64,000 nt of DNA from Patescibacteria group bacterium. GTDB taxonomy: Bacteria > Patescibacteriota > Minisyncoccia > Phycocordibacterales > EsbW-18. A model generated the notes under the pieces. The model did no database searches and was not told the DNA's origin. It was given only the letters and a program-made list of their open reading frames with translations. Every line of letters starts with the position of its first letter. The first letter of the stretch is position 1. The position numbers and the translations under genes were made by a program. Positions 458-45,384 of the stretch are shown here, piece by piece. The stretch is from assembly GCA_038064475.1 (NCBI GenBank), contig JBBTTA010000001.1:111086-175085 (forward strand), read 5' to 3'.

Positions 458-976
458 ATGGTTGATATCGTACAAAAAGAAAATCACACACTTCGGGGTA
501 AGGCCGGACCTGTTGCACAGGCTGATTTTGGAAGTGAAAAACTTCATGAAATCATTGCGCGCATGTCTGATGCACTCTCTGGAGAAAATGACGGTGTTGC
601 GATTGCCGCACCCCAAATTGGCATTCCTCTCCGTATTTTTGTTATATCAGGGAAAGTACTTCGCAAAAAAAGAGACGGCTCACTAGCATCGGACCGTGTT
701 TTCATTAATCCAGAAATCGTAAACACTGCGCAGAAAAAAGAATGGATGGAAGAAGGATGTCTTTCTGTCCGCTGGCAATATGGTGAGGTCGAGCGTTTTA
801 TAAAAGCTACGGTGCGCGCACACGACGTGAACGGCAAAGCATTCACACTCGGCGGCGGCCGTCTCCTCTCACATATTTTTCAACACGAAATTGATCATCT
901 CAACGGCATTTTGTTTATCGACAAAGCACGCAACGTAAAAGAAATGCATCCTAACAAACCTCATTATGGATATTAA
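458..976 (+). CDS. def: peptide deformylase
   Basis: 172 aa carrying the GVAIAAPQIG, EGCLS and HEIDHLNG deformylase motifs. It sits immediately upstream of fmt and overlaps it. Confidence 0.9.
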   Translation: MVDIVQKENHTLRGKAGPVAQADFGSEKLHEIIARMSDALSGENDGVAIAAPQIGIPLRIFVISGKVLRKKRDGSLASDRVFINPEIVNTAQKKEWMEEGCLSVRWQYGEVERFIKATVRAHDVNGKAFTLGGGRLLSHIFQHEIDHLNGILFIDKARNVKEMHPNKPHYGY

Positions 977-1850
977 ATTTGTTTTTTGGGGAACGCCTGA
1001 TATTGCTGTTGCATCGCTCGAGGCCCTTGAAACACATGGACTGCTTCCCCGTCTCATTGTGACGGCTCCTGACAGAAAAGTTGGTCGCGGACTTGAACTT
1101 ACCCCAACAGACGTAAAGGTTTGGGCGAATGAGCGAAATATTCCTGTACTTTCACCCGAGAAACTTTCTGACCATACATTTATGGAAGCGCTCTCCCCCA
1201 CTTCGTACAGCATTTCTGAATGGGATGTCTTTGTTGTTGTTGCGTATGGAAAAATTCTCCCACACACAATTCTTTCACTTCCTCGTTTAGGAACAATAAA
1301 CATGCACCCATCTCTCTTGCCGCGCCATCGTGGTCCTGCTCCCGTTGAATCACAAATTCTTTTTGAGGGTACAAAAGATGGTGTAGGTATTTCTATCATA
1401 CTTCTCGACAAAGAAATGGACCACGGTCCCATTCTTGCTCATGCATCGGTCGGTGGTGCACTTTTATCATGGCCTATTGGAGCAGTTGAGCTTCGTGCAC
1501 TTTTAGGAGAAGCGGGCGGCACGCTCCTTTCAACTACGCTCCCAGAATTTGTACAAGGAAATATTACGCCAATTCCCCAAGACCACACACAAGCAACATT
1601 TTGCAAAAAAATAGAGAAAGAAGCTGGTTTGATTACTCTCACCGACGATCCATTCACTAATTTCAAAAAGATTTGTGCGTACGAGATTTGGCCACGTGCC
1701 TACTTCTTTGCAGAAAAGCACGGAAAACAAATTCGCGTTGTTATAACCAAAGCCTCATACGAAAATAACATCCTCACAATTGAGAGTGTTATTCCCGAAG
1801 GACGAAAAGAAATGACTTGGGACGAATTTCAACGCTATCTTGTATCTTAA
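966..1850 (+). CDS. fmt: methionyl-tRNA formyltransferase
   Basis: 294 aa with the N-terminal FWGTPD...A motif and the HPSLLPRHRG formyltransferase motif. The def-fmt gene order matches the usual arrangement. Confidence 0.9.
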   Translation: MDIKFVFWGTPDIAVASLEALETHGLLPRLIVTAPDRKVGRGLELTPTDVKVWANERNIPVLSPEKLSDHTFMEALSPTSYSISEWDVFVVVAYGKILPHTILSLPRLGTINMHPSLLPRHRGPAPVESQILFEGTKDGVGISIILLDKEMDHGPILAHASVGGALLSWPIGAVELRALLGEAGGTLLSTTLPEFVQGNITPIPQDHTQATFCKKIEKEAGLITLTDDPFTNFKKICAYEIWPRAYFFAEKHGKQIRVVITKASYENNILTIESVIPEGRKEMTWDEFQRYLVS

Positions 1851-1865
1851 ACACATTTGAAATTC

Positions 1866-1956
1866 CAGATACAAGGCGTGGGCGAGGACCAAACCGAGCA
1901 ATAGTTTTTCTATTGTGAGGGAGGATTGGAGCCCACAACACAGTAGGTGGATTTTC
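1866..1956. repeat. about 91-nt structured intergenic repeat, copy 1 (the second copy is at 20783..20875)
   Basis: Both copies begin cagatacaaggcg and end cagtagNtgNgatttc. They fold as nested stems gtgggc/gcccac, ccaa/ttgg and caatag/ctattg. Copy 1 lies in the gap between the convergent fmt and PPIase genes. Confidence 0.5.
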
Positions 1957-1964
1957 AAATGCGT

Positions 1965-2621
1965 TTAACGAACAATCTCAACGCTCGTGATAACAACATC
2001 TTCAACTGGTCGGTCACCTGTCGCAGTTTCGGTTGTTGCGATTGCATCAACAATTTCCATTCCGGAAATCACTTTTCCAAATACAGGATGCGAGCTTCCC
2101 ATTGGTGGCTTGTCAAAATCGAGTCCGGTATTATCAACAACGCTGATAAAGAACTGGCTACCACCTGAGTTTTTCTGACCTGTGTTTGCCATTGCTATCG
2201 TGCCGCGCACATTTGAATATCCTTCAACAAATTCGTCTTCAATCGTGTAGCCCGGACCACCCGTGCCCCAACGCATTGTTTGTGTTGCGTCTTTCGTCAA
2301 AGGATCCCCTCCTTGAATCATGAACCCTGCAATCACACGATGAAAACGCGTGTTGTCGTAAAAACCATCTCCTGCAAGTTTTATAAAATTACCTGTCGTA
2401 ATTGGCATGGCGTCGGAAAACAATTCAAACGTGAAGTCTCCACGATTTGTGTGAAAAATTGCTTGTGTCGCGCCTGCTGTTTTTGTTGTATCAGACGACG
2501 TTCCAATTTGTGGTTCATCTGCAATTGGTAATGAATTCATATCGGGAATACTTGAAATAATAAAGTATGCAACAAGTGCAACAATACTTAGCTTAACGAG
2601 TGACCAAAGAGCATTTCGCAT
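1965..2621 (-). CDS. peptidyl-prolyl cis-trans isomerase, cyclophilin type, with an N-terminal membrane anchor
   Basis: 218 aa containing HRVIAGFMIQGGDP and GTGGPGY, which are cyclophilin signatures. The N-terminus has a hydrophobic helix. Confidence 0.85.
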   Translation of the reverse strand: MRNALWSLVKLSIVALVAYFIISSIPDMNSLPIADEPQIGTSSDTTKTAGATQAIFHTNRGDFTFELFSDAMPITTGNFIKLAGDGFYDNTRFHRVIAGFMIQGGDPLTKDATQTMRWGTGGPGYTIEDEFVEGYSNVRGTIAMANTGQKNSGGSQFFISVVDNTGLDFDKPPMGSSHPVFGKVISGMEIVDAIATTETATGDRPVEDVVITSVEIVR

Positions 2622-19284: not shown

Positions 19285-20766
19285 ATGACTCCTTCGCTCG
19301 AAATGCTTTTAAAGAGCCTTTCTCGAGCTTCCGCACAGGATCGAGACCTTGTTTCTCGCGCATGGAAATTCGCTGAGGAAGCCCATCACTCCCAAAAACG
19401 TGAGTCCGGAGAACCTTTCTTCACCCACGTTGCAAAAACCGCGGAGACGCTTGCGGCGCTTGGTGCCGACGCACCAACAATCGCCGCTGGACTCCTCCAC
19501 GACAGTATTGAAGACACAGGAAAAGATATTGAAGAAATCCGCGATACGTTTGGTCTCGAAGTTGCATTCCTTGTTGATGGTGTGACAAAACTTGGAAAGC
19601 TCAAATATCGTGGACTCAAACGTCACGTTGAATCATTGCGTAAACTTTTTATCGCAACCGCCGAAGACCCACGCGTCATTCTGATTAAGCTCGCCGATCG
19701 TCTGCATAATATGAAGACACTCTCGGCACTCCCTCAAGAAAAACGTATGCGTATCGCGCTTGAGACTTTGGAGATTTACGCGCCTATCGCGCATCGGCTC
19801 GGTATCGGAAAAGTAAAAGGAGAACTTGAGGATCTCGCCTTTCAAGCCGCATACCAAGAAGCATTCACAGAAACACGAAAGGCACGTGATGAAAAAGCAA
19901 AGCGCGCTGAAAGTGAGCTCAAAAAAATGGTTTTGAAGATTGGTACGATGCTTCGAGGCACCGGTGTAAAAGTACATACCCTCGATACACGCATCAAACA
20001 CCTGTACAGTCTCCACAAAAAACTACAAGAAAAAGGTAAAAACATTGAGAACGTCTACGACATTGCGGCATTGCGCATCATTGTGGAAACAGTTGAGGAG
20101 TGTTACCTCGTGCTTGGTTTAATTCACAGCGCATGGAAACCTTTACCTGGACGCATCAAAGACTACATCGCCGTTCCAAAACCAAACGGCTATCGCAGTT
20201 TACACACGAGTGTGTTCACGGGTACCGGTTCGGTCATTGAAATTCAAATTCGCACACAAGAAATGCACGATGTTGCTGAGCATGGTATTGCGTCACATGT
20301 GGCATACAAAGAAGACGGCTCGACAGACGGAAGTTTTGCGCTTGCACAAAATCTCATCAAAAGTCCCCTCCAAATAGCAGCCCAAGGCATTTCTCCACGC
20401 TGGATTAAAGACCTTGCTGAAACACACAAAGACGAACAGCAAGCACAATCATTTATAAAAAATCTCAAAACCGACTTCCTCGGCGATCGTATTTTCGTCT
20501 TCACACCAAAAGGCGAAGTCGTTGATCTCCCTTCAGATGCAACACCAATCGACTTTGCCTACTCAATTCACACCGATCTTGGACATCATGCTGCGGGAGC
20601 GCGCGTGAATGGAAAATATGTTGCGCTTGGCACCAAACTCAAGCACGGCGACATTGTTGAAATTGAAACAAAAGAGGCGAGTCACCCTTCTGCAAAATGG
20701 CTTACGTGGGTAAAAACAAGTTTTGCAAAGAAGAAAATACGTACTGCGCTTGAGCACAAAAAATAG
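19285..20766 (+). CDS. rel: bifunctional (p)ppGpp synthetase/hydrolase, short Rel/SpoT form with HD, synthetase and TGS domains
   Basis: The HD hydrolase motif is HDSIEDT. The synthetase motifs are YRSLHT and DxxALR. The C-terminus has a TGS-like GDIVEI region. The protein is 493 aa. Confidence 0.85.
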   Translation: MTPSLEMLLKSLSRASAQDRDLVSRAWKFAEEAHHSQKRESGEPFFTHVAKTAETLAALGADAPTIAAGLLHDSIEDTGKDIEEIRDTFGLEVAFLVDGVTKLGKLKYRGLKRHVESLRKLFIATAEDPRVILIKLADRLHNMKTLSALPQEKRMRIALETLEIYAPIAHRLGIGKVKGELEDLAFQAAYQEAFTETRKARDEKAKRAESELKKMVLKIGTMLRGTGVKVHTLDTRIKHLYSLHKKLQEKGKNIENVYDIAALRIIVETVEECYLVLGLIHSAWKPLPGRIKDYIAVPKPNGYRSLHTSVFTGTGSVIEIQIRTQEMHDVAEHGIASHVAYKEDGSTDGSFALAQNLIKSPLQIAAQGISPRWIKDLAETHKDEQQAQSFIKNLKTDFLGDRIFVFTPKGEVVDLPSDATPIDFAYSIHTDLGHHAAGARVNGKYVALGTKLKHGDIVEIETKEASHPSAKWLTWVKTSFAKKKIRTALEHKK

Positions 20767-20782
20767 AACATTTCTGAGGCCG

Positions 20783-20875
20783 CAGATACAAGGCGCGAGC
20801 GAGGATCGGACTGAGCAATAGTTATTTCTATTGTGAAGGAGAACCGGAGCTCGCAACGCAGTAGATGCGGATTTC
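20783..20875. repeat. about 91-nt structured intergenic repeat, copy 2
   Basis: It is roughly 85% identical to 1866..1956. Its stems are gcgagc/gctcgc and tcgg/ccgg, which are compensatory versus copy 1. It lies between the convergent rel and parB genes. Confidence 0.5.
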
Positions 20876-20885
20876 AGGAATGTTC

Positions 20886-21839
20886 TTAGACGCTGAAGTT
20901 GTTGATTGAGTATAGATCGTCGTCCGAGGGATCTTTCTTTGGGGTAGGTGGCTCACCTTCAGTTCCCTCTTGTGGCACTGTTGTATCTCTGGGTGCTTTT
21001 GTCGGAGCATTCTCCCCTTCTCCATTCAAAATACGGAGTACCTTACGCACGTCGTCTTCTGACATAACGTCAATTAAAATACGCCCACCGACAGCGCCCG
21101 GTTCAACGCGAACACGCGTGCCAAGTGTTTCTGATGCGCGCTCTTCAAGCTCCACAATATCTGGATCGTACATACGCTCTCGTTTGCGCACTTTATCAAA
21201 TGCAATACGACGAGAAATTTGTTCTGCGTCACGCACGTTAATTTTCTTCGCAATAATTTCTTTGAAAAGGGTACGTTGTTCTTCAGGACGATCAACAAGC
21301 ATAAGGAGTGGTCGTGTGTGACCTTCCGTAATCTGTCCTTCAGCGAGCGCTTGTTGCATCGCTTCGGGAAGCATGAGAATACGAAGTGTGTTTGAAACAT
21401 ATTCACGACTGCGGCCGATTTTCTTTGCGATATCCGTGTGTGAAAGACCAAATTGTCCTGCAAGTTGTTTAAATGCCTGCGCGCGTTCAACGGCATTGAT
21501 ATCTTCACGTTGAAGGTTCTCGATGATAGCAATCTCAAGTTTTACCTGTTCATTTTCTTGATCATCACGAATAATGACAGGGACTTGTGTTAGCCCAGCT
21601 ATTTTTGCCGCGCGTAAACGGCGTTCTCCGGCGATGAGCTCATATTCCATGCCCATACCACCGTTATCTCGAGAAACCTCACGCTGTGTCACCACAAGCG
21701 GTTGCAAGACACCATATTGACGAATTGAGTTCGCAAGATCCTTAAGACGCCCCTCATCAAAGTCGCGCCGTGGTTGATATGGATTCGGCACGATGCGATC
21801 CACTTCGACCCAAAAAATAGAATTACTCTGGTATGCCAT
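20886..21839 (-). CDS. parB: chromosome partitioning protein ParB/Spo0J
   Basis: It has the ParB box GERRLRAAK and the HTH GLSHTDIAKKIGRSREYVSNTLR. The start is set at MAYQSN. Confidence 0.85.
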   Translation of the reverse strand: MAYQSNSIFWVEVDRIVPNPYQPRRDFDEGRLKDLANSIRQYGVLQPLVVTQREVSRDNGGMGMEYELIAGERRLRAAKIAGLTQVPVIIRDDQENEQVKLEIAIIENLQREDINAVERAQAFKQLAGQFGLSHTDIAKKIGRSREYVSNTLRILMLPEAMQQALAEGQITEGHTRPLLMLVDRPEEQRTLFKEIIAKKINVRDAEQISRRIAFDKVRKRERMYDPDIVELEERASETLGTRVRVEPGAVGGRILIDVMSEDDVRKVLRILNGEGENAPTKAPRDTTVPQEGTEGEPPTPKKDPSDDDLYSINNFSV

Positions 21840-21935
21840 GTGTTCAGTGTAGCAAAATGAAACGCTCACGTCAGTGTGGAGATTCTGGGGATGTCTTATC
21901 GTACGAGCAGTTTTCTGCTAGAATCAATCCGAAAT

Positions 21936-22016
21936 GCCGGAGTGGCGGAATGGTATACGCGCACGACTCAAAATCGTGTCTCGAAAGGGATGAGGGTTCG
22001 AGTCCCTCCTCCGGCA
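21936..22016 (+). tRNA. tRNA-Leu (anticodon CAA), class II with a long variable arm
   Basis: A cloverleaf can be drawn: acceptor GCCGGAG/CTCCGGC, anticodon loop CTCAAAA, variable arm TCTCGAAAGGGAT and T-arm GAGGG-TTCGAGT-CCCTC. Confidence 0.9.
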
Positions 22017-22027
22017 CAAAGACAGTT

Positions 22028-22063
22028 GAGGCGGACGCATAGCGTCCGCCGATTACTGATTTT
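22028..22063 (+). terminator. terminator after tRNA-Leu(CAA)
   Basis: The hairpin gcggacgc-ata-gcgtccgc is followed by gattactgatttt. Confidence 0.6.
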
Positions 22064-22064
22064 C

Positions 22065-22187
22065 GCCGGAGGAGGGACTCGAAGGCGAATGCGGGCACCT
22101 TGTCAGCAGACAAGGTCGCATGAGCAGGGCCGAGCGGAGTAAGGAGCGACGGCGACGAACGAGCGCTTGGCCGAGTCCCGACGACTC
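22065..22187. repeat. tRNA-Leu 3'-flank structured element, copy 1 of 3
   Basis: It starts with gccggaggagggactcgaa, the exact reverse complement of this tRNA's T-arm and acceptor 3' half. A conserved GC-rich core follows (cgaatgcgggcaccttgtcagcagacaaggtcgcatgagcagg...gagcgacggcgacgaa). It ends with cgagtccc, which pairs with gggactcg in the first segment. Confidence 0.5.
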
Positions 22188-44670: not shown

Positions 44671-44753
44671 GCTGGGGTGGCGAAATGGTATACGCGACAG
44701 ACTTAAGATCTGTTGTCCGCAAGGACGTGAGGGTTCGATCCCCTCTCCCAGCA
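44671..44753 (+). tRNA. tRNA-Leu (anticodon TAA), class II
   Basis: Acceptor GCTGGGG/TCCCAGC (with one G-U pair), anticodon loop CTTAAGA, long variable arm and T-arm GAGGG-TTCGATC-CCCTC. Confidence 0.9.
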
Positions 44754-44766
44754 CTAAAATTGTTGA

Positions 44767-44799
44767 GACGAACACATGTGTTCGTCGATTACTATTTTT
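44767..44799 (+). terminator. terminator after tRNA-Leu(TAA)
   Basis: The palindrome gacgaacacatgtgttcgtc is followed by gattactattttt. Confidence 0.6.
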
Positions 44800-44919
44800 G
44801 CTGGGAGAGGGGATCGAAGGCGAGTGCGGGCGCCTTGTCAGCAGACAAGGTCGCATGAGCAGGACTGAGAGGAATGAGGAGCGACGGCGACGAATGAGCT
44901 CTTGGTCTGAGCCCCTCTC
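44800..44919. repeat. tRNA-Leu 3'-flank structured element, copy 2 of 3
   Basis: It starts with gctgggagaggggatcgaa, the exact reverse complement of this tRNA's 3' half. The core is about 90% identical to copy 1. It ends with cccctctc, which pairs with gagagggg in the first segment. Confidence 0.5.
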
Positions 44920-45328: not shown

Positions 45329-45335
45329 CACATAC

Positions 45336-45368
45336 AAAAACAACGCCAGTTTATTGGCGTTGTTTTTG
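45336..45368 (+). terminator. terminator after tRNA-Leu(TAG)
   Basis: The hairpin aaaaacaacgcc-agtttatt-ggcgttgttttt is present. Confidence 0.6.
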
Positions 45369-45384
45369 TATGTGCTGACGAAAA

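Follow-up and report, generated by a model that had tools for sequence, protein, structure and literature searches.

MITEs of the ERIC/YPAL and Correia kinds, from Enterobacteria and Neisseria, are non-coding units of 100-170 nt with inverted-repeat ends that fold into one long hairpin. They insert at TA with duplication of the target, lie in transcribed intergenic regions near the 3' ends of genes, and are confined to a genus or family, beyond which their interiors are not conserved. Repeats of this hairpin type, REP, ERIC and Correia among them, are usually viewed as lineage-specific, and conservation of an interior is not expected of them. PATE elements, derived from IS200/IS605, have neither inverted-repeat ends nor a target duplication and carry a hairpin near each end. 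Duplication of TA is a hallmark of IS630/Tc1/mariner transposition, and ISY100 needs in cis only its 24-bp inverted repeats (PMC2170065). The motif GTAG is the tag of RAYT-associated REPs, in which a 20-40-nt palindrome bears an unpaired GTAG at its 5' end (PMC3733652).

Here we describe a new structured element, strand-specific and very widespread, that is borne by miniature transposons; two copies of it lie in a 64,000-nt stretch of DNA (the window) from a Patescibacteria MAG near Campbellbacteria and Kaiserbacteria. Its mobile, MITE-like nature is well supported. The account that we favour, with moderate confidence, is a MITE-like element bearing a strand-specific structured core as conserved cargo, an RNA role being thought the likeliest for that core.

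Two copies between convergent stop codons

The original prediction placed two copies of a repeat in gaps between convergent genes, and both were found at the positions given, one between fmt and a peptidyl-prolyl isomerase (PPIase) gene and the other between rel and parB. Their similarity was confirmed, but the proposed identity of about 85% was not, the value being 75/93 (81%) over the coordinates first assigned to the repeat and falling to 70% when the gaps are compared in full. The element extends beyond the limits first given and occupies each gap entirely, from one stop codon to the other (1850-1965 and 20766-20886). Searches of the 64-kb window using blastn, nhmmer and an unfiltered covariance model gave a copy number of two only.

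Copy 1 is a full unit of 116 nt on the plus strand (1850..1965; covariance model 56.3 bits, E 9e-13), with A as its first base, T as its last, and inverted-repeat ends AACACATTTGAAA and TTTCAAATGCGTT. It is preceded by fmt, encoding methionyl-tRNA formyltransferase (966..1850, plus strand; an ORF, with Pfam Formyl_trans_N matched on the identical gene), the TAA stop codon of which (1848-1850) consists of the left duplicated target TA (1848..1849, context TTAA, 1847-1850) and the first base of the element. The PPIase gene on the other side (1965..2621, minus strand; an ORF matching Pro_isomerase) is convergent with fmt, and its stop codon, TTA at 1965-1967 when read for the minus strand, consists of the last element base and the right duplicated TA (1966..1967, context TTAA, 1965-1968). 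Copy 2 is a unit of 121 nt on the plus strand (20766..20886; 55.7 bits) with the ends GAACATTTCTGA and TCAGGAATGTTCT. The TAG stop (20764-20766) of rel, of the RelA/SpoT family (19285..20766, plus strand; ORF and RelA_SpoT domain match), is formed by the left TA (20764..20765) and the first base of copy 2, and the right TA (20887..20888) belongs to the minus-strand stop codon (TTA, 20886-20888) of the convergent parB (20886..21869, minus strand; ORF and ParB domain match).

Related genomes hold both sites in the empty state. In the syntenic relative L127 (Fmt 61% identical), the genes at the fmt/PPIase site overlap by 4 bases, TTAG, with no gap between them, and the element is absent from the site orthologous to copy 1 in L127, L255 and L256; two relatives other than L127 have at fmt/PPIase either an unrelated 61-nt palindrome or a different gene order. 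At rel/parB, empty sites reading CTAA, TAA-A-TTA and TTAA were found in L253, L252 and L254 (Rel 79%, 72% and 69% identical to that of the window), and these, along with the sequence itself, identify the left TA of copy 2. L251 (Rel 83% identical) carries an orthologous diverged copy of 33.2 bits, and L250 (82%) a 42-nt remnant. Comparison of the filled arrangement at both window sites, N-TA-[R...Y]-TA-N, with the empty one, Y-TA-R, indicates that TA is duplicated; alternatively, the same junctions may reflect duplication of the full 4-bp YTAR.

A non-autonomous hairpin-forming element would thus have inserted at the TA within Y-TA-R, where convergent stop codons overlap. Insertion would duplicate the TA, and a purine start together with a pyrimidine end would rebuild TAR stops on both strands, as judged from the four junctions; with both stop codons rebuilt, neither protein would be altered. 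Such a geometry would provide a route for transposons into genomes with minimal intergenic space, such as those of CPR bacteria. The unit, of 114-190 nt in the copies found, is small, non-coding and dispersed, and has the terminal inverted repeats and the target duplication, read from filled and empty sites, that define a MITE. Among the options offered by the original prediction, the REP/MITE-like element is accordingly the one borne out, given empty sites at both loci, a duplicated TA, inverted-repeat ends and many dispersed copies.

The L250 remnant has kept the outer stem and CGCAGTAG and has lost the core, as expected if a deletion had taken place between the CGCAG repeats on either side of it. 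The core is therefore dispensable in at least one lineage, L250 having the outer hairpin only. The converse history, in which a core was inserted into pre-existing hairpins, was considered and rejected on two grounds: the outer stem is conserved from copy to copy in the same genome, and L250 keeps CGCAGTAG, the mark of a deletion between the CGCAG repeats. In L251, the orthologue of window copy 2 is 77.5% identical to it, compared with 47-50% at the third codon positions of rel and parB in the same pair of genomes. The L251 copy has also kept its fold (-41.5 kcal/mol) through changes from CCGC/GCGG to CCAC/GUGG and from GCGAGC/GCUCGC to GGGAGC/GCUCCC. This single orthologous pair points to selection on the inserted rel/parB copy.

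A location between convergent genes would also suit a bidirectional intrinsic terminator and nothing more, the similarity of the two gaps then being due to convergence or local duplication. An A-tract, stem and U-tract are indeed present in many Desulfobacterota copies (AAAAAGGNCC...GGNCCTTTTT), and L250 keeps a simple 12-bp hairpin after the loss of the core. However, the window copies have weak U-tracts, and a rho-independent terminator test of both elements (tails UUUUCAAA and AUUUCAGG) found no terminator-like site. A4/T4 tracts flank only 47 of the 120 listed copies, 60% being without them; a terminator has no need of 22 bases invariant across phyla or of an 80-nt loop insert; and related genomes cope with overlapping stops and no hairpin. 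We consider a terminator alone extremely improbable, and as a sufficient explanation it is largely refuted. The bidirectional terminator module suggested in the original prediction is disfavoured on the same counts, the window copies having no canonical stem followed by a U-tract and A4/T4 tracts being confined to 47/120 copies.

Fold, covariation and strand asymmetry

All the stems named in the original prediction are present in the minimum-free-energy folds of both copies. In copy 1, the conserved core (GATACAAGGCG...CAACACAGTAG; 1868..1946, plus strand) forms a rod-like fold, as supported by folding, pattern and alignment, with the helices P2 (1878-1883/1931-1936), P3 (1889-1892/1926-1929) and the P4 hairpin (1898-1916) and a near-invariant internal loop, AAGGC at 1873..1877 on the 5' side facing AACACA at 1937-1942. 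The core of copy 2 (20785..20864, plus strand) has the loop sequences AAGGC (20790-20794) and AACGCA (20855-20860) and the helices P2 (20795-20800/20849-20854), P3 (20806-20809/20844-20847) and P4 (20815-20834). P2 pairs as GUGGGC/GCCCAC in copy 1 and GCGAGC/GCUCGC in copy 2, P3 as CCAA/UUGG and UCGG/CCGG, respectively, and the inner stem GCAAUAG/CUAUUGU is common to both. A further, outer stem differs in sequence between the copies, being GAACAUUUCUGAGGCCGCA/UGCGGAUUUCAGGAAUGUUC in copy 2 and CAUUUGAAA.UCCA/UGGA.UUUCAAAUG in copy 1, where the minimum-free-energy fold pairs the 5' arm (CAUUUGAAA then UCCA, 1854..1867, plus strand) with the 3' arm (UGGA then UUUCAAAUG, 1948..1961). The folds have stability z values of -6.9 (copy 1) and -8.8 (copy 2), and none of 200 shuffles was equally stable.

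Independent single-sequence folding gave a single unbranched rod in 110 of the 114 listed copies, with 5' and 3' arms of 48-52 nt each, 12 nt of flank included. From the outside inwards, the rod consists of a variable outer stem, a tandem G-A/A-G step, UAC/GUA, the loop AAGGC/AACRCA, two variable stems split by purine-rich loops, and an apical hairpin that is typically GCGUAC-loop-GUACGY. A covariance model was built and 119 listed matches were aligned to it, giving changes on both sides at 33 of 36 pairs, pairing in 85.1% of cells (61.3% after shuffling and 28-42% with the partners slid) and a covariation score of 0.565 as against 0.171, all figures that a structure-fitted alignment favours. 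The outer stem (helix 1) covaries across the family as well, with double changes at 9/9 pairs. RNAalifold on a plain MAFFT alignment found 19 of 24 pairs compensated, and this result and the single-sequence folds agree with the structure-fitted covariation despite the fitting bias. The selection on secondary structure that had been claimed from two copies is therefore upheld by the 33/36 double-changed pairs and the low shuffled and slid controls. The extra copies keep the stems, leaving the original prediction neither limited to two copies nor contradicted by stem-breaking ones.

About 25 diverged copies, found by the covariance model only, are free of pattern bias since they do not match the exact pattern from which the family was collected. 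They retain AAGGCG and AACGC-G; in them UAC/GUA covaries to UGC/GCA and UGAC/GUCA, and the G-A step is replaceable by Watson-Crick pairs. In the paired columns, 295 cells are G-U or U-G and 81 are A-C or C-A. The strand running from GATAC to GTAG has a more stable fold than the complementary strand in 104 of the 114 listed copies, with mean fold energies of -43.6 and -36.4 kcal/mol, and remains favoured after collapsing of related copies (54/57 clusters at 85% identity and 21/23 at 75%) and with DNA energy parameters (108/114 listed copies). Hence the core folds on one strand only, an asymmetry that the original prediction had missed, and we infer that it acts as a single-stranded nucleic acid.

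The single-stranded form need not be RNA. The core might instead be a cis site for propagation of the element via single-stranded DNA, with the folded plus strand, rather than the double-stranded ends, being recognised by the mobilising enzyme or by a host replication factor, and this we consider unlikely; candidates for the recognising factor would be a tyrosine transposase of the HUH/Y1 class (RAYT/IS200 kind) or else a factor for priming or recombination. A strand-specific fold in nearly all lineages, whatever the orientation of the host genes, and the persistence of the asymmetry under DNA parameters are in keeping with it, as is the conserved GTAG in which the core ends, with further same-strand GTAGs in Acidobacteriota units. 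However, the GUA of this GTAG is base-paired and covaries, and the motif lies at the 3' end of the body rather than at the 5' end as in REPs. The folding strand is the locally C-rich strand in 56 of 86 listed assemblies (p = 0.007), which could reflect the direction of replication. IS608-type elements insert into the lagging-strand template, and the GC-skew bias seen here runs opposite to that expectation. Moreover, the orthologous rel/parB copy shows conservation well beyond the neutral level, which would not be expected of a purely selfish site in cis.

A conserved interior on different transposon ends

The original prediction had proposed a search for further copies and a comparison with Rfam. 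For the former, the pattern GATACAAGGCG-N(50-80)-CAACRCAGTAG, with 22 specified bases taken from both copies, was scanned against one genome per species. The exact core pattern was matched by at least 120 stretches in at least 86 assemblies of at least 10 bacterial phyla, a phylum count that rests on long contigs and isolates (short MAG contigs are possibly mis-binned, and near-identical copies across "different" phyla could be binning errors). The hosts belong to Acidobacteriota (Terriglobia, Bryobacterales, Thermoanaerobaculia), Desulfobacterota (many genomes), Trichlorobacter, Nitrospirota, Omnitrophota, Planctomycetota (Scalindua), Patescibacteria (Kaiserbacteria, Peregrinibacteria, Saccharibacteria), Actinomycetota, including a Coriobacteriaceae genome, Bacillota (Selenomonadales), Spirochaetota (Spirochaetaceae), Bacteroidota, Anaerolineales, several Gammaproteobacteria and others. 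Host sequences include megabase contigs and a closed 6.8-Mb chromosome, the Thermoanaerobaculia chromosome OY761158.1 and Terriglobia CAVWRA01 are among the hosts, and two hosts are isolates, Trichlorobacter thiogenes ATCC BAA-34 and Thalassolituus maritimus DSM 24913. Up to nine copies were present among the loci fetched from one assembly. The core is thus conserved across phyla, which the original prediction had not recognised.

No Rfam family matches either window copy. At the gathering thresholds of Rfam 15, the window and 15 other loci gave only tRNAs and rRNAs and no family for the element, and with E values up to 10 the best match to copy 1 reached 15.6 bits against a threshold of 50. 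A tRNA/tmRNA scan gave nothing related to the element. Keyword searches for such a MITE gave no description in the papers searched, sequence-string searches returned chance primer matches only, and the motif is not present in the Geobacter 'multicopy nucleotide sequence' supplements. The exact pattern had a single match in viral contigs, at a contig edge, and none in plasmids. A looser pattern matched at least 120 viral stretches; 79 of these were screened with the covariance model, proved to contain no element and were attributed to chance. Weak covariance-model matches after tRNA-Leu genes were set aside as a separate feature.

Alignment of several copies per genome or clade allowed the ends of the unit to be delimited. 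These are TA|GCCCGGATTTCTCACAC...GTGTGAGAAATGCGGGC|TA in Acidobacteriota and TA|ACAGGTTGCTGAAAAAGG...CCTTTTTCAGCAACCTGT|TA in Desulfobacterota and Trichlorobacter. Units of the arrangement TA|R...Y|TA with inverted repeats occur in Acidobacteriota, Desulfobacterota, Trichlorobacter and CPR bacteria, and a 2-bp TA duplication is seen in these same lineages, where the YTAR reading also fits. A Desulfobacterota MAG lineage and Bacterium BMS3Bbin05 carry the same core between other ends, GATGGnnnCGTAAAAAGT...ACTTTTTACGnCGCCATC (GATGG...CCATC). Copies with these ends are bounded by 6-bp direct repeats that vary from copy to copy (ATTCTT, ATATTT, AAGCTT, AACATT, AGTTTT), such 6-bp repeats replacing TA in the AB03/MAG063/Desulfurivibrionaceae lineage. 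A 6-bp duplication differs from TA and is therefore probably due to another transposase. Conversely, in the Desulfobacterota genome L094 the ends CAGGTTG..GAAAAAC enclose a 145-nt hairpin with an unrelated interior. With the core found between different ends, and the same ends found around a different interior, it is the interior and not the ends that is conserved across phyla, which is the reverse of the pattern of ordinary MITEs. The core consequently rides on at least two kinds of transposon ends, another property that the original prediction had missed.

No autonomous element or transposase with matching ends was found in the 8-kb loci examined. L053, considered as a candidate autonomous element, has no transposase-like ORF, and putative orphan half-cores flanking a transposase gene proved to be only chance 8-mers and truncated copies. 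These ends bear in turn on propagation through single-stranded DNA. The TA-flanked sites would equally fit insertion 3' of TA by an element ending in TA, but HUH enzymes do not generate target duplications, and the variable 6-bp repeats are genuine ones; long terminal inverted repeats also set the units apart from IS200/IS605 derivatives. The only RAYT found, by a regex scan (L062:1270-2043; NF047646, 97.6 bits), lies 4.2 kb from an element and is flanked by palindromes of its own that are unrelated to the element, and a RAYT link at the loci scanned was rejected.

Strict ORF calls place 20 copies between convergent genes, 32 between co-directional genes and 5 between divergent genes; in the co-directional pairs the folding strand is sense in 14 and antisense in 18. 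These counts indicate that promoter regions are avoided and that the orientation of the element is independent of host transcription. At 31 loci or more, a converging gene ends close to the core, its stop codon being 9-31 nt away and coinciding with the unit boundary. No recurrent neighbouring protein family was found among 740 ORFs near elements, the top clusters being ABC transporters, kinases, EF-G, UvrB and similar housekeeping genes. One Gammaproteobacteria MAG has four copies in the 16S-23S spacer of a single rRNA operon.

These four copies are necessarily transcribed, and they could be taken to favour a further reading, in which the copies are independent genes for a small structured, self-cleaving or protein-binding RNA, their dispersal being secondary. 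Conserved internal loops, covarying variable stems and tight arm lengths are typical of functional RNAs, G-U pairs are abundant, and the orthologous rel/parB copy is conserved in place. On the other hand, the window copies have no promoter-like site and no upstream sequence is conserved across lineages; there is no Rfam match with E up to 10, all known self-cleaving ribozyme classes included; the copies are many per genome, at unrelated loci and with no conserved neighbour; and presence or absence with target duplication denotes insertion rather than an inherited gene. Independent RNA genes are very unlikely in our judgement, and the small RNA of the original prediction fares no better, given that no promoter-like site was found and that orientation with respect to neighbouring genes is random.

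Proposed role and comparison with known systems

Taken as a MITE-like element with conserved cargo, the unit would comprise lineage-variable outer inverted repeats that behave as transposon ends and an 80-nt interior, conserved across phyla, that behaves as cargo between at least two end types. It is a reasonable inference that the TA-flanked lineages are mobilised by an IS630/Tc1-type DDE transposase. Such an enzyme would not be a full account, as it recognises double-stranded ends and leaves the strand-specific fold and the invariant loops unaccounted for. Likewise, since the inverted repeats of ISY100 suffice in cis, the conserved core is unexplained by IS630-type mobilisation. Our leading guess for the core, weakly supported, is a role at the RNA level, where it would serve neighbouring transcription units as a 3'-end or insulating structure, so that the insertion could be tolerated or would be of use. 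Such a role, whether in termination, processing or insulation, agrees with where the copies lie, with their persistence and with conserved loops of an RNA-like pattern; the random orientation counts against it, as do the missing canonical terminator features in the window copies. In particular, a role in host transcripts would be expected to match the folding strand to the upstream gene, and 14 sense versus 18 antisense copies were seen in co-directional pairs. Recognition of the invariant loops by a conserved host factor would account for the retention of the sequence across phyla.

A bolder version is possible but tentative, namely that the 80-nt core is a portable single-stranded module, either an RNA that a universally conserved host factor binds or a catalytic RNA, which unrelated miniature transposons acquired and carried into at least ten phyla and which the hosts keep. 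A core so kept might define transcript 3' ends or insulate convergent genes with formerly overlapping stops. If this were true, transposons would be delivering a class of bacterial RNA element that is widespread yet uncatalogued. More generally, the chance of the core being a new functional module, whether RNA or single-stranded DNA, is a credible one. The covariation of the 80-nt structure is on a par in strength with that of well-established RNA families, yet it is missing from Rfam, and a functional core would mean that a large class of structured nucleic acid in bacteria has gone unannotated; to our knowledge, it would also be the first case of such a module as cargo on different miniature transposons. 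The cultured hosts T. thiogenes ATCC BAA-34 and T. maritimus DSM 24913 make the element open to direct testing.

With respect to known systems, the TA|ACAGGTTGCTGAAAAAGG ends of Desulfobacterota and Trichlorobacter are similar to the ends of Tc1, CAGTGCTGGCCAAAAAG. E. coli REPs have the step 'stem-AA-GGCG' in common with the core. The element resembles IS630/Tc1/mariner transposons in insertion at TA with a probable TA duplication and in its terminal inverted repeats (PMC2170065), but no transposase gene with these ends was found in the loci examined and one lineage has 6-bp duplications. Like REPs and REPINs, it is an extragenic palindrome enriched between convergent and co-directional genes (PMC3733652; PMC3116915), with frequent G-T pairing that suggests a single-strand function, a GTAG motif and long persistence in place. 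It differs from them in its 80-nt body, its inverted-repeat ends and target duplications, and the lack of a linked RAYT in the loci scanned. Membership of the REP/REPIN group was rejected, as the unit is 114-190 nt long and its GTAG is at the 3' end, with a GUA that pairs with UAC and covaries (UGC/GCA, UGAC/GUCA). Derivation from IS200/IS605, as in PATE, was rejected in view of the long inverted-repeat ends, the single rod and the variable 6-bp duplications in one lineage. With the structured RNA families of Rfam (release 15) the element has in common a covariation-backed structure and conserved loops, although none of these families matches it. The ERIC/YPAL and Correia MITEs are likewise short non-coding repeats near the 3' ends of genes, with inverted-repeat ends, a single long hairpin and TA duplication; the element described here differs from them in an interior conserved in at least 10 phyla, a fold formed on one strand and at least two kinds of ends.

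Arms, ends and strand of the units

Besides the inner left arm (L), many units have another one farther out (L'), as seen in L026, L037, L085, L007 and similar units of Desulfobacterota, as well as in L025, L048 and L079. In these units, L' forms the inverted repeat with the right end, and L pairs with the right arm beside the core, so that the right arm has two possible partners. A TA-flanked hairpin MITE of 145 nt (L094 1283-1430) shares its CAGGTTG..GAAAAAC ends with the core-bearing elements of its genome and differs from them in the interior, which includes GCGTAGCGAAGC, reminiscent of GTAGCGAGG, the outer-layer motif of the Acidobacteriota units.

Strand composition was analysed for the 124 exact-pattern copies among the matches listed (the window and the public-genome stretches L001-L120; 86 assemblies). 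Among these listed matches, the folding (GATAC-to-GTAG) strand tends to be the locally C-rich one, with negative GC skew at 82 of the 124 copies and in 56 of the 86 assemblies (p = 0.007), and the tendency persists at loci without a coding bias toward either strand (27 vs 14, again among the listed matches).

Intergenic and spacer sites

The fmt/PPIase gap of L255, a relative of the window organism, holds a 61-nt palindromic sequence (L255 1083-1143; AGCTTATAGCTTATA...TATAAGC..AGCTATAAGC) that is not related to the element. The presence of a different palindrome in the same gap suggests that hairpin elements may repeatedly land at the overlapping stop codons. In a Gammaproteobacteria MAG, four element copies (L022 1862-2782) lie in the 16S-23S spacer of one rRNA operon, three of them oriented along the direction of rRNA transcription; the four copies flank the two spacer tRNAs.

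Hairpins 3' of tRNA-Leu genes and palindromes beside a RAYT gene

The regions downstream of tRNA-Leu(taa) and tRNA-Leu(caa) in the window (44671-44830 and 21936-22095) have a common layout, in which a strong hairpin, ACGAACAC..GUGUUCGU or GCGGACGC..GCGUCCGC, is followed by CGAUUACU, then by the 3' end of the tRNA itself repeated in inverted orientation (e.g. GCUGGGAGAGGGGAUCGAA) and finally by GGCGARUGCGGG. The covariance model of the element matched both regions weakly (19.5 and 17.7 bits). This layout resembles either part of a tRNA in inverted orientation or a conserved downstream module. On the 3' side of tRNA-Leu(tag) lies a perfect 20-bp hairpin (ACAUACAAAAACAACGCCAG...; 45329-45374; fold z = -6.5).

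A REP-associated tyrosine transposase (RAYT) gene was identified at L062 1270-2043 (NF047646, 97.6 bits). The genome is rich in the element, yet the nearest copy lies 4.2 kb away, and the palindromes on either side of the gene, GGGAACGCCAAGCTCCAGCTTGGCA and GCCGAGCTGGAGCTCGGCG, are the RAYT's own.
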